Below, piece by piece: positions 3,001 through 53,510 of a DNA stretch of 64,000 nt. The notes under the pieces are model-generated. The model ran no database searches. It had not been told where the DNA came from and worked only from the letters and a program-made list of their open reading frames with translations. Source of the DNA: Candidatus Aldehydirespirator sp. (GTDB lineage: Bacteria > Actinomycetota > Acidimicrobiia > Acidimicrobiales > Aldehydirespiratoraceae); NCBI GenBank assembly GCA_965221215.1, contig OZ244872.1, forward strand, positions 3,030,340 to 3,094,339, given 5' to 3'. The translations under genes and the position numbers were made by a program. Position 1 is the first letter of the stretch. The number at the start of each line of letters is the position of its first letter.

Positions 3001-4682
3001 CGCTGCCGATGGACCCGAACCAGTCGAACTGCTCGCTGCGCAACAGCGCCGCCGCGGGCACGGGCCTGGCCGCGGGCCAAGACCGTGCCCACTTCTACAT
3101 CCGCATCATCGACGACGCCCATGAGGACTCCGGCGAGACGATCAGGGTGGTCGTCAAGGATCCCATCGGCACCAGCCGCCATCGCAGCGGCATGCACACG
3201 TTCACCTACACGATCACCAACCACGACGCGGTGGAGCTGCCCGCGGCGTCGGCGTCGGTGATCGCGCGCTCTAAGAGCGCGGTCGAGGGCGACGCGGCGG
3301 AGTTCGCGGTGGTGGTGAGCCCGCCGCCTGCCCAGGGCGAGACGCTCGATGTGGCTGTCGACGTGTCCGGCGCGGCCGGGCACCTTGCCGCCGGGCAGGC
3401 CGGCCGGCGCAGCGTGACCGTCGGTGACACCGGCATCGCCGTGCTGCGGGTCGCCACGGTCGACAACGACGCCCGCGAGCTCGACGCGGCGGCAACCGCC
3501 AGAGTGGTCGCAGGCGACGGCTACGGGCTGGGCTCGAGTAGCGGCGCGTCGGTGATGATCACCGACAACGACCCCGACGGCACGGCCCCCACCGTCAGCG
3601 TCGCCGCGGGGGCCGCCACCGTCGTCGAGGGCGACGAAGCGGTGTTCACCCTCACCGCCGACCCCGCGCCCGCGCTGCCGCTGACAGTGGCGGTCACAGT
3701 CACCACCGACGGCGACTACGGCATCGACGCCGAGCCGCGCCCGGTGACCATCCCCGCATCAGGCACATTCACCATGCGGCTGGGCACCTTCAACGACGAC
3801 AACGACGAACCCGACGGAACGGTCACCGTCACCATCGACAGCGCCTACCACTACGACGTCTCCGCCACCGCCAACACCGCGACCGTGGCGGTCCAAGACA
3901 ACGACGAGCCCATGGCTCTCGTGTCGATCAGCGATGCTGTCGCCGCGGAGACCGACGGGGTGATCCACTTCACCGTCACCTTGGACCGGGCGTTGCCCCA
4001 CAACGTGACCGTCTCCTACTTCACCTCCGAAACCAGCCCCGTCTCAGCGGAAACCAACCGCGACTACGTCTCCGCGAGCTGGTACGCCCACATCGCCGCG
4101 GGCGAAACCACCCAAGACATCCCCGTCTACATACTGCAGGACCGCCTCGACGAAGGCCCCGAAACCTTCCAAATCCGCATCAGACGCGTCACCGCAGGCC
4201 GAGCCCGACCCCACCCCACCCAGCACACCGCCACCGGCACCATCACCGACAACCGCCAGCCCGACACCGCCACCGACGGCACCAACCCCGACGATCCTGA
4301 CGACGGCGAGGATCCCCAGCCCGATACCGACACCGGCAGCGGCGAGGATCCCCAGCCCGATACCGACACCGGCATCGGCGAGAACCCCCAACCCGACACT
4401 GGCGGCAGCGCCACCGACGGCACGGGCCTGACAGCCGAACAGATCGCGGCCTGCGTCACCGACGAACTGCTAGAAACCGTGCGCGGCTACTACAAGGCCA
4501 ACCGCGACAAGCCGCCCAACTACGGGCAGAACTGGAAGCGGGTCCTGATCGCCTTCGGCGACATCCAAGATCCCGAACTCACCGCCTACACCGCCACCGA
4601 AGCCTCACAGAGTGAGCAAGTCTGGGCAGGCTGGAAACCCGTCCGTATCGCCCTCCAGTGCCTCAAAGACCTGAGACACTGA
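1..4682 (+). CDS. Giant Calx-beta repeat surface/secreted protein, 5' end outside the window
   Basis: ORF 21..4682 stays open back to nt 3. The residues PELSFA there match the start of the internal PKLSFAQ repeat, so the gene begins upstream. It has about nine modules with the Calx-beta signature (G.DY...F..G....F.V.I..D...E.DE.F.L.L), an acidic DPQPDTDTG linker and a non-repeat C-terminal ~90 aa. Confidence 0.8.
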   Translation, partial: PELSFAMASNSVGEGDGTVSVTVEADAAPSSALTVNLSHTPGSAAAGTDYTAPAATFTFPVNAASHTFTVAINNDSVDEPDEDFTLTLASGSGYTVDSAKATTTVTITDDDDPTVSFTQATYTGSEATGTGSFMVTLSREQASAVTVSYSVGGSAISGTDYTALSGSVSIAAGSTTASIAVAVTDDMIDDDDETIILTLTTGTGYRLPSPATATMTIIDDDATVVRLDRVDSGSIAEGGSGTEADAEFTVMLGRQLVAGEVVEVPLVLAGTNVAAGDVSVAKKPGGSLNRGVGVASSATLTPTVTFTGDGTNVVQTATLLLTAVPDSTTEAAETVTVALGPDGTGTNGFDAAGRATNVGGGADPHSSNNSFTVDIDADPVTPPPAVPKLSFAQATDSVGEGDGTVSVTVEADAAPSSALTVNLTSADGSATGSGTDYTAPASFPFTAGQMSQTFSVTITGDSVDEPDEDFTLTLASGSGYTVDSAKATATVTIIDDDATVVSLARTDSGSIAEGGSGTEADAEFTVSLVGRQLVAGEVVEVPLVLSGTNVAAGDVGVAKKPGVSLNRGVGVASSATLTPTVTFTGDGTNVVQTATLLLTAVPDSTTETAETVTVELGPDGTGTNGFDAAGRATNVGGGADPHSSNNSFNVDIDADPVTPPPAGLAVSFERGAYNVAERDGTVSVTVNAKPAPTADLVVSFTLGGTAGCGRDYAFGTSNCPAGTGTVTIKGGQESATVSLTLVQDDDDDDSERAETVVLTLTDGADYDLGSVQKATVTIAGADGMLLLELSKSEPASLSLSISEGRHDPHSGLEPGFGREAAYSVSLASKPSDVVWVDITVPAGVEVSAAGGLFFDSDDAMQPRLFFLPTDWNEPQRVAVRVVEDDDTKTIASATLTHTASGGGYASVTGEVTLTVDDTVWPESWTDFLSLLHYRGGRVLSEGGHGAHFAVTRSRTYTGDPDMFDADAWVPIPDAWGFQVCFEGTAALGRDYLVRNRFNLPLPMDPNQSNCSLRNSAAAGTGLAAGQDRAHFYIRIIDDAHEDSGETIRVVVKDPIGTSRHRSGMHTFTYTITNHDAVELPAASASVIARSKSAVEGDAAEFAVVVSPPPAQGETLDVAVDVSGAAGHLAAGQAGRRSVTVGDTGIAVLRVATVDNDARELDAAATARVVAGDGYGLGSSSGASVMITDNDPDGTAPTVSVAAGAATVVEGDEAVFTLTADPAPALPLTVAVTVTTDGDYGIDAEPRPVTIPASGTFTMRLGTFNDDNDEPDGTVTVTIDSAYHYDVSATANTATVAVQDNDEPMALVSISDAVAAETDGVIHFTVTLDRALPHNVTVSYFTSETSPVSAETNRDYVSASWYAHIAAGETTQDIPVYILQDRLDEGPETFQIRIRRVTAGRARPHPTQHTATGTITDNRQPDTATDGTNPDDPDDGEDPQPDTDTGSGEDPQPDTDTGIGENPQPDTGGSATDGTGLTAEQIAACVTDELLETVRGYYKANRDKPPNYGQNWKRVLIAFGDIQDPELTAYTATEASQSEQVWAGWKPVRIALQCLKDLRH
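651..1158 (+). repeat. Copy 1 of a near-identical ~510-bp intragenic direct repeat
   Basis: Read directly. The run from atcatcgatgacgatgcgacggtggtgag to gtgacacccccgccggcgg recurs 828 bp downstream with only scattered substitutions and one 3-nt indel (MLGRQ versus SLVGRQ). Confidence 0.9.
1479..1989 (+). repeat. Copy 2 of the ~510-bp intragenic direct repeat
   Basis: Partner of 651..1158. The flanking Calx-beta module (1180..1478 versus 21..335) is also duplicated, at lower identity. Confidence 0.9.
4305..4409 (+). repeat. 36-bp tandem repeat (about 2.9 units) encoding GEDPQPDTDTGS
   Basis: The unit ggcgaggatccccagcccgataccgacaccggcagc occurs at 4305 and 4341, with a diverged third unit at 4377. 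Confidence 0.85.
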
Positions 4683-5876: not shown

Positions 5877-7196
5877 TCAGGGGCCGAGGGCGAATAGTGG
5901 TACTACTGTCACGCCGTCGGGGCGCTCGTATGAGTAGCCGTCGGCTGCGGTTATCACAATGAGCTTTGTTGCTTTGCCCATCTGGGTCGTGTCGACCTTG
6001 CTGTGGACGGCCAGCAGCGAGCGGGCAGCCTGCTCGATCTGCTCGCTGCCGCCCAGTTTGACCTCGACTGCGACCCAGCGGCCGTCTCCGGCGTCGACGA
6101 TGGCGTCGGCTTCGCTGCCGGCTGCGTCGCGGAATGCGAATACCTCAGCATCGACGGCTTGGGCGTAGATGCGCAGGTCCCGGATGACGAGCGATTCGAA
6201 CAGCAGGCCGAGCGTCTCGGGGTCGGACAGCAGACGCTCGGGCCCGGTTCGCAGAGCGGCGACGGCCAGTGACGGATCGGTGAAGTGATGCCGCGGACTC
6301 GATAGCAGCGGCGATCGGGAGCGCAGGTGGGTGGGCCACGCGGTCAGCGGTTCCAGCACATGGAGCCGTTCGAGTGCGTCGAGATAGGCGCGAACCGAAT
6401 GACGGCCGAGGGGAGCGGCTGCGCTGGCTTCGGTGGACAGTTTCTTGAGGCTTGCCGCCGTCCCGACGTTGCGGGCCAGCGAGCGCAGCAGCGCCTGCAC
6501 TCGCACCGGGTCTCGAGCGATGCCGTCGACTTGGCGGATGTCGGTGCGCGCCACATCGTCGAGGTAGCTGCGCAACGCGGCGATCACATCTCGCACCGGC
6601 ACGCTCTCGTCGAGGCCGGGCCAGCCGCCGCGGCACAGCGCATCGACCGCTTCGGGCACACCGCTTCCCGTCGGGCCCGCTTCGGCTGCTTCTCCCCGCA
6701 TGAGCCCGGCGAGCGACACCGCCTGGGTGGACAATCCACGTTCGGCGAGCGACATGGTCCGCAGTGCGAGGCGCTGGACGCGCAGCGCTCCCGAGTGCCG
6801 GGTGAGGTCATCAGACGGTGTGGCCGAGCCGGTCAGGATGAACTGACCTGCTGCGGCTCGGGCGTCGCACACGCCTCGGACGGCGCCCCACAGCGCCGGG
6901 ACTCGCTGCCACTCGTCGATCAATCTCGGTGTGGCGCCGTCCAGCGCCCGGTGGGGTTCGGCCTGGGCCAGCGCGAATGCCGCTGGATCTTGTTCCAGCA
7001 ACGCCTCGCTGCGAGCGAAGCGCTTCGCCAGCCATGTCTTGCCGCAGCCCTTGGGGCCTTCGACGAGCAGCGCCCGGGCGGTTCGTAGTATCCGTGCCGC
7101 ATTCGTCTCAGCGATGCGGACTCGGTAGCCCTCCGGTGTCAGAGTCGCTGCTGGCTCACCCGCCCCGCTGAGATCCATGAGCATGGAATCTACCAT
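5877..7196 (-). CDS. AAA-type ATPase with a DUF4143 C-terminal region (COG1373-like), paralogue 1
   Basis: Walker A GPKGCGKT, LIDEWQ (Walker B-like), FILTGSA, and C-terminal LFESLVIRDL...AVEVK. Roughly half of the residues match ORF 34103..35395. Confidence 0.75.
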   Translation of the reverse strand: MVDSMLMDLSGAGEPAATLTPEGYRVRIAETNAARILRTARALLVEGPKGCGKTWLAKRFARSEALLEQDPAAFALAQAEPHRALDGATPRLIDEWQRVPALWGAVRGVCDARAAAGQFILTGSATPSDDLTRHSGALRVQRLALRTMSLAERGLSTQAVSLAGLMRGEAAEAGPTGSGVPEAVDALCRGGWPGLDESVPVRDVIAALRSYLDDVARTDIRQVDGIARDPVRVQALLRSLARNVGTAASLKKLSTEASAAAPLGRHSVRAYLDALERLHVLEPLTAWPTHLRSRSPLLSSPRHHFTDPSLAVAALRTGPERLLSDPETLGLLFESLVIRDLRIYAQAVDAEVFAFRDAAGSEADAIVDAGDGRWVAVEVKLGGSEQIEQAARSLLAVHSKVDTTQMGKATKLIVITAADGYSYERPDGVTVVPLFALGP

Positions 7197-7255
7197 TTTC
7201 GACGAGATTGATCTACCAAAATCGAGTCCACCGATCTACCAAAATCAGATCAGTG
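7187..7255. repeat. Three 23-bp-period tandem units (core ATCTACCAWWWTC) at the ATPase-1 start
   Basis: Units start at 7187, 7210 and 7233: aatctaccattttcgacgagatt, gatctaccaaaatcgagtccacc, gatctaccaaaatcagatcagtg. Unit 1 overlaps the ATG at 7196. Confidence 0.8.
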
Positions 7256-7368
7256 CAGTGTTGAGCGCATCACGAAGGCACCGATATTCCAAGCTTTCGG
7301 CCAACTGCTGGGATAACAGCCTGAATCTGGGTTCATTGTTTCAGCGAATGGAACGGCGGCTCTCTCCC

Positions 7369-30957: not shown

Positions 30958-31857
30958 ATGTGCGGCATCGTTGGACTGTTCTGCAAGACCGAGACCCACC
31001 GCCACGAACTGGGCCGGCTGACCGCGGTGATGCTGCGGGAGATGCGCGACCGCGGCCCCGACAGCGCCGGCTTCGCGTCGTATGACCCCGGTGAGCCCGG
31101 CCGCACCCGCATCACCGTGCTGGCCGAGGGCGTCGAGGTGGACTGGGGCGCGGTGGCGGCTGCGCTGGAGGACGTGCTGGACGCGGCGTTGACGGTGCGG
31201 GCGGTGCACGACCACGCCGTGCTCTCCACTGACGGCGACGGCCGGGCCGCCCGCCAATGGATCATCGACAACGTGGTCGGGGCGACGGTGCTGAGCTACG
31301 GCGTCCAGATCGAGCTGTACAAGGCGGTGGGCGATCCCGACCTGGTGGCCGAGCGCTACGACCTAGCCTCCCGCACCGGCACCCACGCCCTGGCCCACAC
31401 CCGCATGGCCACCGAGTCGGCCGTCACCACCCGGGGATCGCATCCGTTCGCCACCGGCGCCGACACCTGTCTGGTGCACAACGGGTCGCTGTCCAACCAC
31501 AATCGGCTGCGGCGCCACCTGGAGGGCCACGGCGAGTCGTTCCAAACCGAGAACGACTCCGAGGTGGCCGCCGGGTACCTGTCGTGGCGGATCCGCTCCG
31601 GCGACTCCATCTCGCAGGCGCTGGAGGGTGCGCTGAGCGACCTCGACGGGTTCTACACCTTCGCCATCGGGGTGGCCGACGGCTTCGCCATCCTGCGCGA
31701 TCCCATTGCCTGCAAGCCGGCTGTGGTGGCCGAGACCGACGACTGGGTGGCCATGTCGTCAGAGTACCGGGCCATCGCCCGACTGCCGGGCGCCGCCGAT
31801 GCCGAGGTGTGGGAGCCCGAGCCGGCCCGCATCTACACCTGGAGCCTGGCCGCATGA
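30958..31857 (+). CDS. Class II glutamine amidotransferase subunit (GlxB/MgsA-like)
   Basis: N-terminal nucleophile MCGIVG, HTRMATES, HNGSLSNH. Confidence 0.8.
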   Translation: MCGIVGLFCKTETHRHELGRLTAVMLREMRDRGPDSAGFASYDPGEPGRTRITVLAEGVEVDWGAVAAALEDVLDAALTVRAVHDHAVLSTDGDGRAARQWIIDNVVGATVLSYGVQIELYKAVGDPDLVAERYDLASRTGTHALAHTRMATESAVTTRGSHPFATGADTCLVHNGSLSNHNRLRRHLEGHGESFQTENDSEVAAGYLSWRIRSGDSISQALEGALSDLDGFYTFAIGVADGFAILRDPIACKPAVVAETDDWVAMSSEYRAIARLPGAADAEVWEPEPARIYTWSLAA

Positions 31858-32693
31858 GCGGCGTGCGGACCTTCGATCTGTCGGTCGTCACCCGACGCGA
31901 GCTCAACGGCGCCCTGCACGCCGCTGGCGACGACGAGCGCTTCGAGGTGCTCAATCCCCGGGGCGCCCATGCGGTGGCCTGCGGCATCACCACCGACATC
32001 GAGGTGGTGGTGCGGGGCTCGGTGGGTTACTACTGCGGGGGGATGCACCAGCGGGGCCGGGTGCTGGTCGAGGGCAACGCCAGCACCGGCCTGGCCGAGA
32101 ACATCATGTCGGGGACGGTGCGCATCACCGGCAACGCCACCATGTCGGCCGCGGCTACCGGCTGCGGCGGTCTGGTGGTGGTGGGCGGCAACGCCGGCGC
32201 CCGCTGCGGCATCTCCATGAAGGGCGTCGACATCGTGGTGGGCGGCGACGCGGGCCACATGAGCGCATTCATGGCTCAGGCCGGGAACCTGGTGGTGTGC
32301 GGCGACGCGGCCGCCGATCTGGGCGACTCGATCTACGAGGCCCGCATCTTCGTGCGGGGCGACGTGGAGTCGCTCGGAGCCGACTGCGTCGAGAAGGAGA
32401 TGCGCCCCGAGCACCTCCAGACGCTGGCCCGGCTGCTGGCCGCGGCCGCTCCCACCGTCGAGGGGGCCGACCCGGCCGAGTTTCGCCGCTACGGCTCGGC
32501 TCGCCGCCTCTACAACTTCACCATCGACGATGTGGACGCCCTAGCCCGAGCGGCCCGTGAGCGCAGCGAACATGAGCGGGAAAACACGGCCCGAGCGGCC
32601 CGTGAGCGCAGCGAACATGAGCGGGAATACCCGGCCCGAGCGGCCGGTGAGCGCAGCGAAGGTGAGCGGGAAATCCACGAGGCGGCCCGCTGA
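31854..32693 (+). CDS. GXGXG-motif subunit (glutamate synthase alpha C-terminal domain-like, GlxC/MgsB-like) with a repeat-encoded tail
   Basis: ATGA overlap with the upstream gene. Beta-helix repeats (GSVGYYCGGMHQRGRVLVEGNASTGLAENIMSGTVRITGNA...). The last 45+ aa are encoded by three 45-bp DR core units. Confidence 0.8.
   Translation: MSGVRTFDLSVVTRRELNGALHAAGDDERFEVLNPRGAHAVACGITTDIEVVVRGSVGYYCGGMHQRGRVLVEGNASTGLAENIMSGTVRITGNATMSAAATGCGGLVVVGGNAGARCGISMKGVDIVVGGDAGHMSAFMAQAGNLVVCGDAAADLGDSIYEARIFVRGDVESLGADCVEKEMRPEHLQTLARLLAAAAPTVEGADPAEFRRYGSARRLYNFTIDDVDALARAARERSEHERENTARAARERSEHEREYPARAAGERSEGEREIHEAAR
32544..32678 (+). repeat. DR family, copy D: three tandem 45-bp core units inside a CDS
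   Basis: gcccgagcggcccgtgagcgcagcgaacatgagcgggaa... starts at 32544, 32589 and 32634. Each unit translates to ARAARERSEHERENT or a close variant. Confidence 0.9.
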
Positions 32694-34102: not shown

Positions 34103-35395
34103 TCATGGGCCCAGGGCGATGATAGGCACCACCTGAACTCCGTCGGGGCGGCGATAAGCGGCACCGGTGGAGGTGACCACCACCATCGCGGCTAGGTCGT
34201 CGACCCGAGAGGGGCGTACCTTGCTGCGGAGTCGCAGCAGCGCCCTGGCGGCGGCGTCGACAGCGTCAGGGCCGGGGCTCACCTTCACTTCAGCGGCGAT
34301 CCACGCACCATCGTCGCGCTCGATGACGGCGTCCACCTCCAGACCGGTGTCGTCGCGGTAGTGGTACACCTCCCCGCGCTCCGGCTGGCTGTAGACGCGC
34401 AGGTCGCGGACGGCCAGCGACTCGAACAGCAGGCCGAGAGTGGCAGGATCGGCCAGCAGCCGGCGGGGGGACACCCGCAGCAGATGTGCTGACAGCGACG
34501 GGTCGATGAAGTGGCGTTTGGCCGCTCGACGCAGCGTCGCCCTAGAGCGCAATTGCACCGACCAGGCCGGCTGGTCCTCGATCACGAAGACCCGCTCTAG
34601 CGCGTCGAGATAGGCGGCGACGGTGTTGCGGCCTGCTGGCCCCTCTGCGTCCGTGTCCGCGGCCAGTGTCGATGTTTTGGCCTCGGTGGCGGTGTGGCGG
34701 GCGATCGAGCGCATCAGCCTGCGGACCGCGGCAGGGTTGTGGGTGACGCCGTTGGCGGCAGGAAGTTCGAGGTGGACGATCTCGTTGAGGTAGTCGCCCG
34801 CGGCGAGGAGGGCCTGTTCGGTGTCGAGTCCCAGGCTGGCAGGCCAGCCGCCGATACAGATAGATGCCGCGATCTCGGCCAGGCCCCGCCCGGACTGTGG
34901 CATGGCCGAGAAGGCTTCGCCGTTGAAGAGGCCCTGCATCGAGACCGAGCCGTCGGAGAGACCGCTCTCGTGCAACGACATTGGCCGCATCAGAACCCGG
35001 GCGATGCGGCCCACCCCGGTGTGGCGGGTGATGTCGTCTTGCGGGGCAGCCGAGCCCGTCAGCAGGAATTGGCCCGGCACAGCGCGGTCGTCGCATTCCC
35101 GCCGCACCCGATTCCACAGTCCTGGAGCGTTCTGCCACTCGTCCAACAATCGTGGCGCGGCACCGACCATCACTGCTCCGGGGTCGGCCTCGGCGAGCAG
35201 GAGGGTGGCCTCGTCGTCGAGCCGCGCCTCGCTGCGAGCGAAGCTTCGCGCCGTCCAAGTTTTGCCGCAGCCCCGGCAGCCTTCGATCAAGACAGCCCCT
35301 CGACGCTGCAATGAGCCTTCCACGATGGCATCCACGCTCCGGGGCCGGTAACCCGGCATCACCAGCGGTCTCAGCGCTTCATGGTCACGACCCAT
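34103..35395 (-). CDS. AAA-type ATPase with DUF4143 C-terminal region, paralogue 2
   Basis: Walker A GCRGCGKT, LLDEWQ, FLLTGSA, LFESLAVRDL...AAEVK. The start is taken at MGRDHEAL (35395). Confidence 0.75.
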   Translation of the reverse strand: MGRDHEALRPLVMPGYRPRSVDAIVEGSLQRRGAVLIEGCRGCGKTWTARSFARSEARLDDEATLLLAEADPGAVMVGAAPRLLDEWQNAPGLWNRVRRECDDRAVPGQFLLTGSAAPQDDITRHTGVGRIARVLMRPMSLHESGLSDGSVSMQGLFNGEAFSAMPQSGRGLAEIAASICIGGWPASLGLDTEQALLAAGDYLNEIVHLELPAANGVTHNPAAVRRLMRSIARHTATEAKTSTLAADTDAEGPAGRNTVAAYLDALERVFVIEDQPAWSVQLRSRATLRRAAKRHFIDPSLSAHLLRVSPRRLLADPATLGLLFESLAVRDLRVYSQPERGEVYHYRDDTGLEVDAVIERDDGAWIAAEVKVSPGPDAVDAAARALLRLRSKVRPSRVDDLAAMVVVTSTGAAYRRPDGVQVVPIIALGP

Positions 35396-35451
35396 AGCAG
35401 CCTGTCCTCGTCCTACGACAGGCCAACGCGGAGTGTTCCGTGAACCCGTCA

Positions 35452-35566
35452 AAGTGCGTTCTGGGAATGCTACGCAGTGCACTTTGGGAATGAAACGCAG
35501 TGCACGTTGGGAATGCTACACAGTGCACTTTGGGAATGAAGCGCAGCGCGTTTTGGGAATGTAGCG
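35452..35566. repeat. Five exact-period 23-bp tandem repeats (consensus CAGTGCACTTTGGGAATGMWACG)
   Basis: Units start at 35452, 35475, 35498, 35521 and 35544. Each contains a GTGCAC-like palindrome and TTGGGAATG. The array lies 57 bp upstream of the ATPase-2 start and 95 bp upstream of the DMGDH-like gene. Confidence 0.9.
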
Positions 35567-35660
35567 TGGGGTTTGCTGGCGGTGGGTTGGGGACTGGCGT
35601 AGATTGGCTCCGACTTGGGGCCGGACGGGCCGGACCTGCGAATCGACGGATGGGAGTTCA

Positions 35661-38120
35661 ATGGTCCAGGCGCCGCCCGACCGAGCGCAGATCGTGGTGG
35701 TGGGCGGCGGCATCGTCGGTTGCAGCGTGGCCTACCACCTGGCCCGGCGGGGCATCAGCGACGTGGTCGTGCTGGAGCAGAACAAGCTCACCGGCGGCAC
35801 CACCTGGCACGCGGCCGGGCTGGTGTCGCAGCTCAAGTCGACCTTCAGCCTCACCAAGCTGGCCACCTACTCGGCCCAGCTCTACGAGGCCCTGGAGGAC
35901 GAGACCGGCCAGGCCACCGGCTGCCGCACCCCCGGATCGATCTCGGTGGCCGCCGACGCCGAGCGCTGGGAGGAGATCCGACGGGCCGCGGCCATGGCCG
36001 TGACCGCCGGGGTCGAGACCCGCCAGATCGACATCGACGAGCTGCGGGAGCGCTGGCCGCTGATCCGCACCGACGACATCGTGGGCGCGCTGTTCGTCCC
36101 CAAAGACGGCCACACCTCCCCGGTGGACACCACCGTGGCGCTGGCCAAGGGGGCCCGCAGCCGGGGAGTGCGCATCATCGAGGACGTCGAGGTAACCGGC
36201 CTGCGCACCCGCGGCGGTGCCGTCGCCGGGGTCGACACCGAGCAGGGCAGCATCGAGACCGAGACCGTGGTGCTGGCCACCGGCATCTGGACTCGCCAGC
36301 TCGCGGCCCAGATCGGGGTGAACGTGCCGCTGCAGGCCTGCGAGCACTTCTATGTGGTCTCCGAGCCGCTCGGGCTCGACGCCGACACCCCGGTGCTGCG
36401 CGACCCCGGCAACTACACTTACTTCAAGGAGGAGACCGGCAAGATCATGGCCGGATTCTTCGAGCCCCGGGGCAAGGTGTGGAACCTCGACGGCGTGCCC
36501 CGCGACTTCACCTTCGGCACGCTGGACGAGGACTGGGACCACATCGGGCCGATCTTCGAGCGGTCCGTGCACCGGGTTCCAGCGCTGGGCGACTGCGGCA
36601 TCCAACTGTTCCTCAACGGCCCCGAGGCCTTCACCCCCGACGGGGTGTACTACCTGGGCGAGGCCCCCGAGGTGGACGGCTGCTTCGTGGCGGCCGGGTT
36701 CAACTCGGTGGGCATCCAGTCGGCGGGAGGGGTGGGCTGGGCCCTGGCCGACTGGATCGCCGACCGGCATCCGCCCATGGATCTGTCGTCGGTGGACATC
36801 CGCCGGGCGTTCGAGTTCCAGTCCGACCCCGCCTACCTGGCCGAGCGCATCCCCGAGAGCCTGGGCCTGCTGTACGCCATGCACTGGCCCTTCTACCAGT
36901 ACGAGAGCGCCCGGGGCAGGCGGATGTCGCCCCTGCACGACCGCCTCGACACCGCCGGGGCCGTCTGGGGCGAGACCGCGGGCTGGGAGCGGCCCAACTG
37001 GTACGCCCGCGACGGCCAGGACCGCACCTACGTCTACAGCTACGGCAGACAGAACTGGTGGCCCAACACCGCCGAGGAGTGCCGGGCGGTGCGGGAGCGG
37101 GCCGCGCTGTTCGACCAGACCTCGTTCGCCAAGTTCACCGTGGACGGCCCCGACTCGCTCAAGGTGCTCGACGAGCTGAGCACGGCCCGCATCGACGTTC
37201 CCGTGGGCAAGGCGGTGTACACCCAGTGGTGCAACAGCCGGGGCGGCATCGAGGCCGACCTCACCGTGACCCGCCTCGGGCTGGACCGGTTCCTGGTGGT
37301 GACCGCGGCCGCGGCCCAGACCAGGGACTGGGCCCGACTGCGCCGGGCCGGCCGCGGCCACGACGTGGAGATCGCCGACATCACCGAGCACTGGGCCATG
37401 ATCGGGCTGATGGGCCCCAAGGCCCGCTTCGTGCTCGGCCCGCTCACCGACGCCTCGCTCACCAACACCGACTTCCCGTTCGGCACCTCGCAGCGCATCG
37501 CGGTGGCCGGCATCGACGTGCTGGCCCTGCGCATGAGCTACGTGGGCGAGCTCGGCTGGGAGCTGTACCTGCCCAACGCCCACGCCACCGAGCTCTACGA
37601 CGCGCTGATGAAGGCGGGCGAGCCCCACGGCCTGGCCCTGGCCGGCTACCACGCCATGAACACCCTGCGGCTCGAGTCGGGATACCGGCACTGGGGCCAC
37701 GACATCACCGACGAGGACACCCCGATTGAGGCCGGGTTGGGGTTCACCGTCGGCTGGGACAAGCCCAACCCCTGGAACGGCCGGGCCGCGCTGGAGCACC
37801 AGCGGGAGCGGCCCCGCAACAAGCGCCTCATCCAGTTCCGCCTCGAGCACCCCGAGCTGCTCTGCTACCACGACGACCCGATTCTGCGCAACGGCGAGCC
37901 GGTGGGCAGCACCACCTCGTCGATGTGGAGCTACACCGAGGACCGCTGCCTGGCCATGGGCTACCTGCGCCGCCCCGGCGACGAGGGCGTGGTCCAGGAC
38001 TGGCTGGACACAGGCGCCTTCGAGATCAACATCGGCGGCGAGCTAGTGGTGGCCACCCCGTCGATCCGCAGCTTCTACGATCCCCGAAACCAAAGAGTCC
38101 GCCTGGAGGACGCCCCATGA
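35661..38120 (+). CDS. FAD-dependent dimethylglycine/sarcosine dehydrogenase-like enzyme with a C-terminal GcvT folate-binding domain (paralogue 1)
   Basis: VVVGGGIVGCSVAYHL, GTTWHAAGL (the covalent-flavin His context of DMGDH/SARDH), and a C-terminal aminomethyltransferase fold (YVGELGWELY). Confidence 0.8.
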   Translation: MVQAPPDRAQIVVVGGGIVGCSVAYHLARRGISDVVVLEQNKLTGGTTWHAAGLVSQLKSTFSLTKLATYSAQLYEALEDETGQATGCRTPGSISVAADAERWEEIRRAAAMAVTAGVETRQIDIDELRERWPLIRTDDIVGALFVPKDGHTSPVDTTVALAKGARSRGVRIIEDVEVTGLRTRGGAVAGVDTEQGSIETETVVLATGIWTRQLAAQIGVNVPLQACEHFYVVSEPLGLDADTPVLRDPGNYTYFKEETGKIMAGFFEPRGKVWNLDGVPRDFTFGTLDEDWDHIGPIFERSVHRVPALGDCGIQLFLNGPEAFTPDGVYYLGEAPEVDGCFVAAGFNSVGIQSAGGVGWALADWIADRHPPMDLSSVDIRRAFEFQSDPAYLAERIPESLGLLYAMHWPFYQYESARGRRMSPLHDRLDTAGAVWGETAGWERPNWYARDGQDRTYVYSYGRQNWWPNTAEECRAVRERAALFDQTSFAKFTVDGPDSLKVLDELSTARIDVPVGKAVYTQWCNSRGGIEADLTVTRLGLDRFLVVTAAAAQTRDWARLRRAGRGHDVEIADITEHWAMIGLMGPKARFVLGPLTDASLTNTDFPFGTSQRIAVAGIDVLALRMSYVGELGWELYLPNAHATELYDALMKAGEPHGLALAGYHAMNTLRLESGYRHWGHDITDEDTPIEAGLGFTVGWDKPNPWNGRAALEHQRERPRNKRLIQFRLEHPELLCYHDDPILRNGEPVGSTTSSMWSYTEDRCLAMGYLRRPGDEGVVQDWLDTGAFEINIGGELVVATPSIRSFYDPRNQRVRLEDAP

Positions 38121-40585
38121 CAACGCAACAGGCGCGGTGTGTGATCATTGGCGGCGGGGCCATGGGGGTGGGGCTGCTGTACTACCTGGCCCATGAGGGA
38201 TGGACCGACACCATCCTGCTGGAGAAGGGCGAGCTCACCTCGGGATCGACCTGGCATGCGGCCGGGCTGATCCCCAACTTCATCGGCGACCTCAACATGG
38301 CCAAGGTCCATGAGGAGGCGGTGGCCCTCTACCCCCGCCTCGAGGAGGAGACCGGTCTGTCGGCGGGCTGGCACGGCTGCGGCGCCATCCGGCTGGCCCG
38401 CACCGACGACGAGGTCGACTGGCACCGCTACGTGCACGCCATGCTCACCCAGATCGGCGTCGAGTCGCACCTGATCGGCCCCGCCGAGATCCGCGAGCGC
38501 CATCCTCTGCTGGAGGACCTCAGCGACGTCAAGGTCGGGTTCTACACCCCCAACGACGGCTGGACCGACCCGTCGGGCTGCACCAACGCCATGGCGCGGG
38601 GCGCCCGCAACCTCGGCTGCGAGATACGCCGCCACACGCTGGTGACCGACATGAGCCGCCTGCCCGACGGGCGCTGGGAGATCACCGCCGTCCCCGGCGG
38701 CATGGGCGGCGCCGGCACCGACGACAGCTACCGGATCGTGTGCGAGCACGTCGTCAACGCGGCCGGCCACTACGCCCCCCAGCTCGGGGCCATGGTCGGG
38801 CTAGACGTGCCCATCGTCTCGGTGATCCACCAGTACCTGGTCACCGAGCCCCTGCAGGCCATGATCGACCTCGGCTTCGAGCCTCCCGTGACCCGCGACC
38901 CCCGGTCTTCGTGCTACTACCGCCGGGAGATCGACGGGCTGCTGGTCGGCCCCTACGAAATGTCGGGCTCCAGGGTTTACGGGACCGACGGCATCGACTG
39001 GGCCCACGACTTCCACCTCACCGGCGAGAACGTCGACGTGCTCGAGGAGTGTCTCGAATACACCGCCATGCGCATCGGTGCCTTCGCCACCGCCGGCATC
39101 AAGCAGATCGTGTCGGGGCCGATCACCCACACCCCCGACTCCGGCTATCTGATGGGCCCCGCGCCGGGGCTGCGCAACTACTGGCACTGCAACGGCGCCT
39201 CCATCGGCATCACCCAGGGTCCGGGCGCCGGCAAGTACCTGGCCCAGTGGATGGTCCACGGCCAGACCGAGATCAACGTGCGGGGCATGGACCCCCGCCG
39301 CTTCGGCGACCACACCGGCCCCCGCTCGAGCTTCGCCATCGCCAAGGCCTGCGACGAGTACCACGAGATGTACCAGGTGCGCCTGCCCGGCGAGTACCGG
39401 GCCGCGGGCCGGCCCCAGAAGACGACCCCCATCCACGACCGCCTCGACCGGCTGGGCGCCCAGTGGCAGGAGGTGTACGGCTGGGAGCGGCCCCAGTACT
39501 ACGCGCCCGACGGTGCCGGCGAGCGGCACTCGTTCCGCCGCTCCAACGCCTTCGACCCGGTGGCGGCCGAGGTGCAGGGGGTGCGCCGGCGGGTCGGGAT
39601 CGCCGACATCTCCGCCTTCGCCTCCTTCGAGGTGACCGGCGCCGACGCGGCCGCCTTGCTCGACCGGCTGTCGGCCAACCGGCTGCCGGCTCGAGACGGC
39701 GGCATCCGGCTGACCCACATGCTCACCGACCTCGGCGGCATCGAGTGCGAGATGACCATCGCCCGCCTGGCGGCCGACCGCTTCTATGCGACCTCGGCCA
39801 TCATGGGCCAGAGCCACGACCTCGACTGGCTGCAACAGCACATCGAGCCGGGGGCCGACGTCAAGGTGGCCGACGTGACCGACTCCACCGGCCTGCTGGC
39901 GGTGACCGGCCCCCGGGCCCGCGACGTGCTGGCGACGCTCACCGACGCCGACCTCGCCAATGAGGCCTTCAGGTGGCTGACCGCGGCCGAGATCGCCGTG
40001 GCCGGGGTGCCGTGTGTGGCGATGCGGGTGTCGTATGTGGGGGAGCTGGGCTGGGAGCTGCACTGCGACATGGACCGCCTGGCCGAGCTGTACGACGCGG
40101 TGGTCGCCGCGGGCGAGCCCCACGGGATGGTTCACTTCGGCAGCTACGCCATGAACGTGATGCGCATCGAGAAGGGCTACAAGGCCTGGGGCTCGGAGCT
40201 CACCACCGAGATCACCCCCATCGAGGCCCGCCTGGAACGCTTCATCGACCTGAGCCGGCCCTTCATCGGCCGCGACGCTGCTGTGGCCCGGCGCGACCAG
40301 CCCGAGCCGCTGTCGATGGTGCTGGTGTACTGCGAGGTGGACGCCACCGACAACGATGTGCGGGGCAACGAGCCCGCCTTCGATGCCGACGGCAACGTCA
40401 TGGGCATCGCCACCAGCGGCGCCTGGGGCCACACCGTGGGCCGCAGCCTGGCCTTCGTGTACGTGGCGCCGGCCTTCGAGGCGCCCGGCTCCACCTTCGA
40501 GCTCGACCTGCTGGGCGAGCGCAGGACCGCCACCGTGCTGGCCGAGCCGGCCTACGACCCGGCCAACACCGCCCCCCGATCATGA
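38117..40585 (+). CDS. FAD-dependent dimethylglycine/sarcosine dehydrogenase-like enzyme with GcvT domain (paralogue 2)
   Basis: ATGA overlap with the upstream gene. IIGGGAMGVGLLYYL, GSTWHAAGL, YVGELGWELH. Confidence 0.8.
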   Translation: MTTQQARCVIIGGGAMGVGLLYYLAHEGWTDTILLEKGELTSGSTWHAAGLIPNFIGDLNMAKVHEEAVALYPRLEEETGLSAGWHGCGAIRLARTDDEVDWHRYVHAMLTQIGVESHLIGPAEIRERHPLLEDLSDVKVGFYTPNDGWTDPSGCTNAMARGARNLGCEIRRHTLVTDMSRLPDGRWEITAVPGGMGGAGTDDSYRIVCEHVVNAAGHYAPQLGAMVGLDVPIVSVIHQYLVTEPLQAMIDLGFEPPVTRDPRSSCYYRREIDGLLVGPYEMSGSRVYGTDGIDWAHDFHLTGENVDVLEECLEYTAMRIGAFATAGIKQIVSGPITHTPDSGYLMGPAPGLRNYWHCNGASIGITQGPGAGKYLAQWMVHGQTEINVRGMDPRRFGDHTGPRSSFAIAKACDEYHEMYQVRLPGEYRAAGRPQKTTPIHDRLDRLGAQWQEVYGWERPQYYAPDGAGERHSFRRSNAFDPVAAEVQGVRRRVGIADISAFASFEVTGADAAALLDRLSANRLPARDGGIRLTHMLTDLGGIECEMTIARLAADRFYATSAIMGQSHDLDWLQQHIEPGADVKVADVTDSTGLLAVTGPRARDVLATLTDADLANEAFRWLTAAEIAVAGVPCVAMRVSYVGELGWELHCDMDRLAELYDAVVAAGEPHGMVHFGSYAMNVMRIEKGYKAWGSELTTEITPIEARLERFIDLSRPFIGRDAAVARRDQPEPLSMVLVYCEVDATDNDVRGNEPAFDADGNVMGIATSGAWGHTVGRSLAFVYVAPAFEAPGSTFELDLLGERRTATVLAEPAYDPANTAPRS

Positions 40586-51197: not shown

Positions 51198-53510
51198 GTG
51201 TCAGACGAGGGACTGACCGTGTTCAACGGTCGCTACGAACTGCTCCGGCGCATCGGACGGGGCGGAATGGCCGATGTCTATCTGGCCCGCGACGCGTCGC
51301 TCGACCGCCAGGTGGCGGTGAAGGTTCTGTTCCCCGAGTTCGCCAATGATCCCAGTTTCGTCGAGCGTTTCCGCCGGGAGGCCAAGGCCGCGGCCAACCT
51401 GAATCACCCCAACATCGTCGGTATCTACGACTGGGGCCAGGAGCAGGGCACCTACTACATAGTGATGGAGTACGTGGTGGGCCGCAACATGGCCGACGTG
51501 CTGCGCTCCACCGGCCGGCTCAGCCCCGACCGGGCCGCGGAGATCGCGTCGGACGTGGCCGAGGCGCTCAGCAGCGCCCACAACGCCGGCCTGGTGCACC
51601 GCGACATCAAGCTCGGCAACATCATCGTGAGCGACGACGGCCAGGTGAAGGTGGCCGACTTCGGCATAGCCACCGCGCTGGCCCGAAGGACCGGAGAAAA
51701 CCTCACCCATATCGGCTCGGTCATGGGCACGGCCACGTACTTCTCGCCCGAGCAGGCCCAGGACAAGGCTCTCGACGGCCGCAGCGACCTGTACTCGCTG
51801 GGGGTGGTGCTCTACGAGCTGATCGCGGGCCGACCCCCCTTCACCGCGGAGACTTCGACCGCGGTGGCGGTCAAGCATGTGCAGGAACGTCCGCTGCCGC
51901 CGTCGCTGCTGGGCGTGGGCATCGTGGAGTCGCTCGAGGCCATCATCTTGAAGCTGCTGGCCAAGAATCCGGCCAAGCGCTATCCCAAGGCCGACGATCT
52001 GCGCGCCGACCTCCAGCGCTACCTGGCCGGTGCGCACAGCATCGGCGCCCCTGCCCCCCGTGCCGGGACAGCCGAGCGGCCTGCCACACGATCGCCGGCT
52101 GCTCCGGGCGCGACTCCGGACCTTCGCCCGGGCTCGGTGGCGATGTCGGGGCCGCGTCCCGGACCGGCCGGCGCTTCAGACCCGCGCCCGGGCTCGGTGG
52201 CGATGTCGGGCCGGTCGCACACCGGTCCTGTAGCCGCACCGGGGCGGCCCCGCACCGGTCCGGTGGCGATGTCGGGGCGGCCCCCCACTGGCCCGGTGCC
52301 CGCCGCGCCGCGCCGCGGCGCCGGTCCCCCCACCGGTTCCACCGCCCAGGTGCCGGCCGCGCCCGGCTCGGGGCAAGGTCCTCCCCAGCAGTTCGTTCCG
52401 CCGGCCTACTACTACGAGGAGGTCCACCGCTCCGACGGCTGGAAGCGGGCCCTGCTGATGATGCTGGGCCTCGGCGCCCTGGTAGTGGTCCTGGTCTTGT
52501 TGGGAGTGACCTTCTATGAGTCGCTGGGCCTCGACGATGGCAACGGGACCGACGCGCCGGCCGCCTCCGAGGATGTTTCGCTGGTCGATGTGCCCGATGT
52601 GCTGGGGCTGAACTACGCCGACGCCGACGCCCAGCTGCGCTCGATCGGACTGGTGCCGGAGCCCAGCTACCAGGTCAACACCGGCCAGCCCGAGAACACG
52701 GTGATCGCCCAGAGTCCTCCGGCCGGGCAGCGGATCGACGAGGGCACCACGGTGGCGCTCACCGTGAGCCAGGGCGAGACCCCCACGGTGCCGCCGGTGC
52801 GGGGCCGCAACCGGGTCGATGCCACCGACATTCTTCGCAGCGCGGGCTACGAGGTGATCGTGATCGAGGGCGCCAGCCAGGCCGAGGCGGGCATTGTGGT
52901 GGGCCAGGAACCGTCGTCGAACACCGAGCTCGCGCCGGGCGAGGCGGTGACCATCACCGTCTCCACCGGGCCGGGCCAGATCTTCGTGCCCGACCTGCGG
53001 GGCCAGACCCTGAGCCAGGCCTTCCAGACCTTGATCGAACAGGGATTCCGGGTGGGGGAGCGGCGCGAACCCTCGACCACGGTGGAGGAGGGGCAGATCA
53101 TCGACACCGATCCGCCCCACGGATGGCCGGTGTCGAGCGGCTTGGAGGTGTTCGTCATCATCTCGGACGGTCCGCCGCTGGTGGCCATCCCCGACGTCCA
53201 GGGCCTGCTGTTCGACACCGGCAAGCTGGCCATCGAGCGAGCCGGTCTGCTCGTGGGCATCGTGACGTTCGAGCCGGTGGAGCCGGGATCGACCGACGTG
53301 GGCCGGATCCTGGCCCAGACGCCGCCGCCCAATCTCGAAGTGTCGGCCGAGACCCCGGTAGACGTGGTGGTGGGCGAGGTGTCGGAGACCGAGGGCGATC
53401 AAGTCGAGCCGCCCGAGGGCGAAGACACCGAGACCGGAGGCACCGACCAGACCGGCGCCGGCGAGACGGGCGCCGACCAGACCGAGGCCGACTCCGGCAA
53501 CTCTGGCTAG
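51198..53510 (+). CDS. pknB: Ser/Thr protein kinase with four extracellular PASTA domains
   Basis: GRGGMADVY, VAVK, HRDIKLGN, DFGIA, a Pro-rich linker, a TM segment and four PASTA repeats. GTG start. Confidence 0.85.
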   Translation: MSDEGLTVFNGRYELLRRIGRGGMADVYLARDASLDRQVAVKVLFPEFANDPSFVERFRREAKAAANLNHPNIVGIYDWGQEQGTYYIVMEYVVGRNMADVLRSTGRLSPDRAAEIASDVAEALSSAHNAGLVHRDIKLGNIIVSDDGQVKVADFGIATALARRTGENLTHIGSVMGTATYFSPEQAQDKALDGRSDLYSLGVVLYELIAGRPPFTAETSTAVAVKHVQERPLPPSLLGVGIVESLEAIILKLLAKNPAKRYPKADDLRADLQRYLAGAHSIGAPAPRAGTAERPATRSPAAPGATPDLRPGSVAMSGPRPGPAGASDPRPGSVAMSGRSHTGPVAAPGRPRTGPVAMSGRPPTGPVPAAPRRGAGPPTGSTAQVPAAPGSGQGPPQQFVPPAYYYEEVHRSDGWKRALLMMLGLGALVVVLVLLGVTFYESLGLDDGNGTDAPAASEDVSLVDVPDVLGLNYADADAQLRSIGLVPEPSYQVNTGQPENTVIAQSPPAGQRIDEGTTVALTVSQGETPTVPPVRGRNRVDATDILRSAGYEVIVIEGASQAEAGIVVGQEPSSNTELAPGEAVTITVSTGPGQIFVPDLRGQTLSQAFQTLIEQGFRVGERREPSTTVEEGQIIDTDPPHGWPVSSGLEVFVIISDGPPLVAIPDVQGLLFDTGKLAIERAGLLVGIVTFEPVEPGSTDVGRILAQTPPPNLEVSAETPVDVVVGEVSETEGDQVEPPEGEDTETGGTDQTGAGETGADQTEADSGNSG

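Follow-up and report, generated by a model that had tools for sequence, protein, structure and literature searches.

A 23-bp tandem repeat array accompanies DUF4143/PDC-S01 ATPase-nuclease genes across many phyla and may be an iteron-like operator

Results

Five 23-bp direct repeats precede a gene for a predicted ATPase-nuclease

The DNA analyzed here, referred to as the window, is a stretch of 64,000 nucleotides from Candidatus Aldehydirespirator sp. (contig OZ244872.1, positions 3,030,340 to 3,094,339), in which an array of 23-bp direct repeats lies upstream of a gene coding for an ATPase with AAA_14 and DUF4143 domains (Table 1). The array sits in a divergent intergenic region of 265 bp, 56 bp upstream of the ATG of the ATPase gene (35395) and ~95 bp from the ATG (35661) of a dimethylglycine dehydrogenase-like (DMGDH-like) DAO/GCV_T gene on the plus strand (35661-38120). 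These are the neighbors that had been named in the initial annotation, whose account of five phased 23-bp units is accurate as well: the unit sequences it gave are correct, and the units, which start at 35452, 35475, 35498, 35521, and 35544, follow each other head to tail with no indels. On the gene strand, from distal to proximal, they read CGCTACATTCCCAAAACGCGCTG, CGCTTCATTCCCAAAGTGCACTG, TGTAGCATTCCCAACGTGCACTG, CGTTTCATTCCCAAAGTGCACTG, and CGTAGCATTCCCAGAACGCACTT, and each has an invariant core, CATTCCCA plus GC.CT, and then ~6 bp of variable linker. Tandem Repeats Finder (TRF) detects the array with a period of 23, 4.3 copies, 81% matches, and 0% indels (score of 130). An additional 46-bp super-period scores higher (158) because the units alternate in an A-B-A-B pattern, units 2 and 4 differing by a single base. 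Matches to the unit with at most three mismatches number two in the window, versus none in shuffles of it. The array also has a lower G+C content (0.55) than its surroundings (0.66-0.74), as had been pointed out.

Some finer details had to be revised. The string TTGGGAATG, which had been described as invariant, is exact in four units, but unit 1 has CTGGGAATG, and the truly invariant string is TGGGAATG. Similarly, the GTGCAC-type palindrome that had been attributed to every unit is confined to units 2-4, and it is not the conserved feature, as orthologous units carry ACGCGT, ACGCGC, ACGCAC, or ACGTAT at that position. That the array is not a CRISPR is borne out by units that abut each other, variable parts of 6-11 nt, and flanks with no cas-like family. 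In the syntenic locus of a close relative (L001), which shows 94.7% nucleotide identity over 7.3 kb, the array is the window array minus exactly one 23-bp unit.

The spacer between the array and the ATPase gene presumably holds the core promoter and 5' leader, to judge from its sequence. A −35-like TTGACG (35447-35452, gene strand), which is kept in L001, straddles the proximal edge of the array, while a Shine-Dalgarno-like GGACGAGGA is found upstream of the ATG.

Table 1. Features of the ATPase-nuclease loci in the window
Feature	Position	Strand	Basis or remark
ATPase-nuclease gene, 430 aa	34103..35395	(-)	Pfam AAA_14+DUF4143, PADLOC PDC-S01, AlphaFold model
Array of five 23-bp direct repeats	35452..35566	(-)	Sequence reading, TRF, shuffles
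Spacer, 56 bp, array to ATPase ATG	35396..35451	(-)	Sequence reading
Second AAA_14/DUF4143 ATPase-nuclease paralog	5877..7196	(-)	47% identical to first ATPase
Array of second paralog, ~2.6 units of 23 bp (TRF 2.6 copies)	7188..7246	(-)	TRF, sequence reading

The array is a near-universal companion of the gene family

A survey of the regions upstream of DUF4143 ATPase genes, which had been proposed as a check, was done on three sets of loci. The first consists of 80 loci (L001-L080) from species-representative genomes, coding for relatives of the first ATPase with 43-94% identity, in taxa that include Acidimicrobiia, Gammaproteobacteria, Gemmatimonadota, Solirubrobacterales, Bacteroidales, Lentisphaeria, Acidobacteria, and Cyanobacteria. 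The second consists of 80 metagenome loci coding for relatives of the second window paralog (35-80% identity), and the third of 30 loci on contigs of the viral collection IMG/VR. For each locus, a 300-bp stretch around the gene start (−260 to +40) was scored for matches at all lags between 10 and 40, and 1480 windows of 300 bp taken from the 80 loci of the first set served as controls.

Lag 23 is the best at 169 of the 190 homologous loci, in many phyla, including 72/80 genome loci, 69/80 metagenome loci, and 28/30 IMG/VR loci, versus only 22 of the 1480 control windows. When a lag-23 score of at least 26/46 is considered, 66 of the 80 loci in the first set reach it, versus four of the 1480 controls. 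In over half of these 80 loci, TRF likewise detects a period-23 array immediately upstream of the gene. When the proteins of the first 160 loci and the two window copies were clustered at 70% identity, 38 of the 42 clusters were array-positive, and one further cluster shows the same core with a 22-bp period. Arrays with a 22-23-bp period are also found in distant plasmid relatives, which are described below.

The arrays are present on one side of the gene only, with no inverted partner downstream. We searched the flanking open reading frames (ORFs) across loci for a conserved partner gene, and none recurs beyond loci of the same species. The ATPase is thus the only constant neighbor of the array, and the divergent DMGDH-like promoter, which had been viewed as part of the context, is incidental. 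Together, these findings show that the array is a near-universal, position-constrained companion of the ATPase-nuclease family, and not a local oddity. In the literature that we searched on the DUF4143/AAA_14/PDC-S01 family and 23-bp repeats, we found no description of such arrays.

Two of the surveyed loci have other short tandem repeats, perfect or near-perfect and unrelated to the 23-bp arrays. In L038 (2760-2850 and 6301-6385), GTCCGACCY 9-mers are found directly upstream of the 23-bp array and a perfect 22-bp repeat (3.9 copies) lies downstream. L011 has a perfect 24-bp tandem repeat (3.3 copies, 2593-2672) near the ATPase locus.

Units are specific to lineage and paralog

Across lineages, the unit combines a conserved asymmetric core (~12-17 bp) with a linker of 6-11 bp that varies. 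Unit sequences are lineage-specific, with a weak common sub-core of the CCAAA/TTTGG type; in the gut lineages, for example, the core is GAAAATCCGAAT or ATTCGGATTTTGG. In 73 non-redundant arrays, the copy number ranges from 1.6 to 8.5 (median 3.3), and the proximal end of the array lies at a median of 73 nt before the codon of an invariant Arg19 (interquartile range 61-91), i.e., ~53 nt before the likely ATG. The arrays of gut strains differ by whole units. In the window array and in six others (L022, L026, L047, L050, L059, and L060), a two-unit (46 bp) or three-unit (69 bp) period outscores the 23-bp one, which suggests either duplication of multi-unit blocks or functional pairing of units.

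The orientation of the array relative to the gene is not fixed. Among 74 non-redundant arrays, the CCAAA-type core is on the coding strand in 60 and inverted in 14. This is best illustrated by L128 and L131, whose proteins are 61% identical: they share the same 11-mer core, ATTCGGATTTT, at similar distances from the gene and in opposite orientation to it. In several lineages, the array comes as close as 5-20 nt to the start codon, or a −10-like TGGTAnnnT is part of the last unit. The array abuts the ATG in L047, L050, and L070, and the last unit has an extended −10-like TGGTAAACT or TGGTAGATT in L123 and in the second window copy. Tandem sigma-70 promoters, for which 23 bp would be the distance from −35 start to −10 start, were considered and rejected, as the hexamer-like elements in the units are spaced by 9 or 32 bp instead of 17.

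Paralogs show that the unit differs even within a genome. DUF4143 ATPase paralogs with ~36% identity are often neighbors, divergent or convergent, and in four loci with such a pair (L008, L013, L036, and L048), a second array can be read beside the second gene. In L036 and L008, this array has a core clearly unlike that of the first; in L048, nothing but CCAAAT is common to the two cores; and in L013, the second array has a shorter period (~20 bp). The unit sequence is therefore specific to both lineage and paralog.

The window itself contains a second paralog, and the presence of a 23-bp-period array at this gene had been noted correctly. On the gene strand, this array reads GATTTTGGTAGAT-cggtggactc-GATTTTGGTAGAT-caatctcgtc-GAAAATGGTAGAT, and each core contains an extended −10-like TGGTAGAT. 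Its proximal unit overlaps the mechanically called ATG (7196), and the true start of the gene is probably the ATG at 7184 or 7178. The second array is inverted relative to the first, since its TTTGG-type core is on the coding strand. The view that the two paralogs have different units is correct for the sequences themselves, but the TTTGG-type core is common to both, and the array of the second paralog is inverted relative to its gene. What had been taken for a degenerate copy of the first unit (7251-7274) does not hold up, since it shares just the 7-mer CAGTGCA, which is found eight times in the window versus 10 expected by chance. Relatives of the second paralog with 77-80% identity (L081 and L096) have arrays that match its own.

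Plasmid-borne relatives extend the association

Plasmid homologs with lower identity (43-30%) in Collinsella, Bacteroides (Bacteroides uniformis), and Lentilactobacillus have 23-bp arrays, as does a homolog in the gammaproteobacterium Azotobacter. In the 27-kb Collinsella plasmid, the exact 11-mer core is found in the array only. Nine still more distant homologs (27-32% identity) are on alphaproteobacterial plasmids (L198, L199, L202, and L204-L209) from Agrobacterium, Novosphingobium, Roseivivax, Shinella, Ensifer, Rhizobium, and Microvirga. Eight of these have 22-bp arrays, the exception being Microvirga (L208) with 23 bp. The core in this subfamily is AATTGGnCGG or TTTCAAnnGGTC, and it is inverted in L206 and L207. 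In L198, L199, L204, and L205, the last core is found directly before the ATG, which suggests leaderless or near-leaderless transcripts.

In two more distant DUF4143 ATPases (L203 and L200), the upstream elements are palindromic rather than an asymmetric 23-bp array. L203, a distant second family member on the Collinsella plasmid (NZ_OY725718.1, ~860-915), has two 22-bp repeats, each with the 18-bp palindrome TACTCAGTATACTGAGTA.

The protein is predicted to combine an ATPase, a winged helix, and a nuclease

Both window genes are clearly members of the DUF4143/PDC-S01 family (AAA_14 plus DUF4143; COG1373). The first ATPase matches Pfam DUF4143 (6.4e-34) and AAA_14 (1.5e-11), and both window proteins match hidden Markov models of the PADLOC candidate PDC-S01, the match of the first to PDLC04790 (E value of 3.7e-68 over residues 12-428) being a full-length one. 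The AlphaFold (AF2) model of the first ATPase, which has a predicted local distance difference test score (pLDDT) of 87.8 and a predicted template modeling score (pTM) of 0.89, comprises an AAA+/STAND-like P-loop core, a helical lid, a winged helix (residues ~221-297), and a C-terminal alpha/beta PD-(D/E)XK domain. The Walker A (G39/G44-K45-T46) and Walker B (D85-E86) residues show no or almost no variation in alignments A1 and A2. As judged from the model, the PD-(D/E)XK nuclease motif is intact, its signature being formed by E325, D355, and E369-x-K371, which show the same conservation in both alignments. DUF4143 had earlier been classed as PD-(D/E)XK (PMC3424549).

The suggestion that the C-terminal DUF4143 region might bind DNA has to be narrowed. 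The part likely to do so is the predicted winged helix at the start of the Pfam DUF4143 region, and the C-terminal remainder has a PD-(D/E)XK nuclease fold. The modeled winged helix carries a conserved basic wing, LRSRxxLRxxPKRHF, and the equivalent region of a Thermus homolog matches the helix-turn-helix (HTH) models HTH_IclR, HTH_5, and HTH_24. When the model was compared with solved structures using Foldseek, the best matches were the Pyrococcus Walker ATPase PABY2304, followed by CED-4/Apaf-1, ORC/Cdc6, DnaA, RuvB, and RFC. The matches to ORC, Cdc6/Orc1, and DnaA have E values of ~1e-4 and low TM-scores of 0.18-0.27. A search of PDB sequences with the window ATPase gave no informative match, and sequence similarity to initiators is negligible.

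PDC-S01 has been described as a very abundant, unvalidated single-gene defense candidate (PMC12988326; bioRxiv 10.1101/2024.09.26.614923). It ranked fourth among the most common prokaryotic "defense" systems in one survey, with ~39,000 copies (PMC12988326), and one tested representative gave no protection in Escherichia coli (bioRxiv 10.1101/2024.09.26.614923). Around the window copies, the genes are metabolic and do not form a defense island.

Other features of the window

The first ATPase gene and its array are placed between a GXGXG/Glu_synthase pair and two consecutive DAO/FAO_M/GCV_T paralogs (35661-38120 and ~37925-40585), which are dimethylglycine or sarcosine dehydrogenase-like and lie downstream of the GXGXG/Glu_synthase pair. 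The whole looks like a methylated-amine catabolic cluster. The GXGXG-domain ORF (31257-32693) has a 45-bp tandem repeat at its C-terminal end (32544-32673; 2.9 copies, 92% matches), which is in frame and encodes a 15-residue peptide three times just before a stop codon that overlaps the start of the next gene. Other tandem repeats in the window have units of 27 bp and 36 bp (4227-4396), and of 33/66 bp and 54 bp (52195-52394). They may encode repeated peptides, as these lengths are multiples of three.

Discussion

The array as probable DNA sites for the product of its own gene

The explanation that we favor, and consider probable, is that the units of the array act in cis as double-stranded DNA sites for the adjacent ATPase-nuclease, forming an iteron-like operator/assembly array, with autorepression as the most likely outcome. 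Several properties argue for sites of this kind, read by the product of the gene: the period does not change with phylum or G+C content, an asymmetric core recurs head to tail, the unit sequence is specific to lineage and paralog, the position relative to the gene start is tightly constrained, and both orientations are tolerated. The last of these points to a role at the level of DNA, not RNA. The different units seen at the window paralogs and at adjacent paralogs would fit cognate specificity, as far as can be judged from sequence. The proposal in the initial annotation of an iteron-like array of protein-binding sites is therefore strengthened by the tie to the DUF4143 ATPase across phyla, the binding of a protein being a step that we still infer.

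In the mechanism that we envision, one ATPase protomer would bind one 23-bp unit (core of ~12-17 bp plus variable linker), and direct repeats with a fixed period would template a head-to-tail oligomer of the ATPase at the promoter of its own gene. The consequence would be autoregulation, more probably autorepression of a potentially toxic nuclease. Autorepression is favored because many lineages have an extended −10-like TGGTAnnnT in the last unit or an array that comes within a few nucleotides of the ATG. We infer each of these steps, i.e., the ATPase as the binder, one protomer per unit, and the sign of the regulation.

Several observations weigh against this explanation. Approximately 10% of the surveyed loci have no detectable array, and the Thermus plasmid homolog L200 has a single palindrome, CTGAATGATTATCATTCAG (~965-985), instead of a 23-bp array. 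With regard to the protein, the winged-helix segments of the window proteins match no HTH family in Pfam at E values up to 10, the predicted helix 3 (YLxALERxFVIEDQPAW) is conserved and not basic, and in STAND proteins, it is common for winged helices not to bind DNA. When distances between array units were compared with distances between the AAA, lid, winged-helix, helix-3, and nuclease segments, covariation gave no segment-specific signal beyond shared phylogeny, with overall divergence held constant. Moreover, the paralog units share the TTTGG/CCAAA sub-core, which makes it possible that a common host factor reads it. As for the sign of the regulation, a scan of 35300-35750 for consensus promoters and terminators gave no matches, and no sigma-70 promoter.

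Alternative explanations

The main alternative to autorepression keeps the same binder and reverses the sign. The array would be an upstream activating array similar to MalT boxes or SARP/AfsR sites, where a signal-triggered ATPase oligomer is positioned beside the −35 and drives positive feedback for defense. The geometry of many loci would suit this, as the array ends ~50 nt before the ATG in most of them, roughly where a −35 is expected, and TTGACG straddles the array edge in the window copy. Activators of the MalT and SARP type typically use direct repeats adjoining the −35, and the modeled fold resembles STAND NTPases. However, an array that ends 5-20 nt from the start codon, or a last unit with a −10-like element, as seen in several lineages, fits occlusion better than recruitment, and the occurrence of either orientation is unusual for class II activators. 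On balance, we view auto-activation as rather unlikely.

A more ambitious extension of the operator/assembly explanation, which we put forward as speculative and no likelier than auto-activation, is that the array is an obligatory second component of PDC-S01. It would act as a chromosomal loading platform, on which a DNA-bound oligomer with one protomer per 23 bp, and not the free protein, would be the resting/sensing state of a very widespread immune or addiction module.

If the ATPase were not the binder, the array could be read by a host factor or RNA polymerase, or could act through DNA shape (A-tract writhe, tandem promoter/UP-like elements). The A/T-tract plus GG/CC sub-core (CCAAA/TTTGG) common to units across lineages, the extended −10-like TGGTAnnnT inside some units, and the lack of a segment-specific covariation signal between protein and array are in line with this. 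Nevertheless, the 22-23-bp period and its association with the gene persist in phyla that differ greatly in G+C content and transcription machinery, units differ between paralogs of the same genome and even inside one intergenic region, and arrays are rare in control windows. We consequently deem a host factor or DNA shape improbable.

A function at the RNA level, whether of a repetitive 5' leader or of a small RNA that is bound by the ATPase-nuclease or guides it, is slightly less probable still. In arrays that reach the ATG, some portion has to be transcribed or to hold the promoter, and a conserved core with a variable part superficially looks like a repeat and a spacer. However, close relatives have the same core in both orientations to the gene, the variable parts are just 6-11 nt, and the predicted folding of the window array is not significant (z-scores of −1.9 and −0.8 for the two strands). 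Rfam gave no relevant matches in the window region (E values up to 1) or in 20 related loci (gathering threshold).

Finally, we give very little credence to the array being a set of origin iterons, a transposon end, a recombination site, or a degenerate CRISPR-like array of a mobile element. Plasmid iterons and the contiguous transposase sites at Tn7 and Mu ends do typically show a tandem spacing of 22-23 bp, and the gene family does move between contexts. However, the array is one-sided, its neighborhood has no conserved gene of the Rep, transposase, integrase, or cas kind, the window copy shares synteny with L001 within a metabolic gene cluster, and there are no spacers of CRISPR length.

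Comparison with known systems

Returning to the favored operator/assembly array, plasmid iterons are among its closest parallels, examples being R6K (seven 22-bp repeats), pPS10 (four 22-bp repeats), and RK2 (17-mers spaced by ~22-23 bp). In both cases, direct repeats follow each other in tandem at a fixed period of ~22-23 bp, are composed of a conserved core and a variable linker, and lie beside the gene of the presumed binder; both differ in sequence between related systems, and autoregulation is likely. However, the adjacent protein here is an AAA+/STAND-like ATPase with a PD-(D/E)XK nuclease, not a WH1-WH2 Rep (no Rep family match), and we saw neither an AT-rich unwinding element (the lowest G+C in the region is 0.55) nor DnaA boxes. 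Since the copies are chromosomal, among metabolic genes, and exist as two paralogs, no role in replication is indicated for the window arrays.

The archaeal Orc1/Cdc6 proteins with their origin recognition boxes (ORBs), and DnaA with its boxes, resemble the present system in that a winged helix or HTH comes after the AAA+ module (modeled here and matched by Foldseek) and in that repeated sites lie beside their own gene. DnaA boxes are found in the dnaA promoter and oriC, and ATP-dependent oligomerization of DnaA on arrayed sites, as well as its autorepression, are established. In contrast, the array here is strictly head to tail with a 23-bp period, versus inverted ORBs flanking a DNA unwinding element or 9-mers, and the protein carries a nuclease domain and shows negligible sequence similarity to these initiators.

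The STAND regulators (MalT boxes, SARP/AfsR heptamer repeats) likewise combine an NTPase and a DNA-binding domain, the latter predicted here, in one polypeptide, and their direct repeats lie by the core promoter, as may also be the case here. Proteins of the MalT/SARP type bind cooperatively to direct repeats that abut the core promoter, with oligomerization as a switch. MalT and SARP, however, control other operons and have no nuclease effector, whereas the conserved target here is the own gene only, and their repeat period is ~10-11 bp (SARP) or irregular (MalT) versus 23 bp here. Partition arrays, such as the 11-bp iterons of R1 parC and the 43-bp repeats of F sopC, are also tandem direct repeats beside an operon that serve as a platform for nucleoprotein assembly, and parC is an operator as well. 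They differ in period and in having a ParA/ParM or ParB/ParR partner, which is not seen here, where the context is chromosomal and there are multiple paralogs. As for PDC-S01, its descriptions in the literature as a single-gene candidate do not mention an upstream repeat array. By analogy, the array thus appears to resemble iterons, DnaA/Orc site clusters, and the direct-repeat operators of STAND proteins, yet to belong to none of them when layout, partner protein, and nuclease effector are considered.

Implications

To judge from the literature searched, what is new here is the attachment of an iteron-like, putative operator array to a major uncharacterized gene family. The DUF4143/AAA_14 ATPase-nucleases (PDC-S01) are among the most abundant uncharacterized candidate defense genes, and the array makes their function directly testable, since a cis-element with a fixed period predicts the DNA ligand, stoichiometry, and oligomer geometry of the ATPase-nuclease. 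In practical terms, the 22-23-bp upstream periodicity is a simple signature for annotating DUF4143 ATPase loci. The array is also a possible reason why a heterologous test of the ORF alone might fail, and it defines what constructs must contain. If it is indeed a loading platform, cloning tests limited to the ORF would miss PDC-S01 activity. If our favored explanation is true, an AAA+/STAND-nuclease would become one of the few proteins known to assemble on iteron-like arrays.

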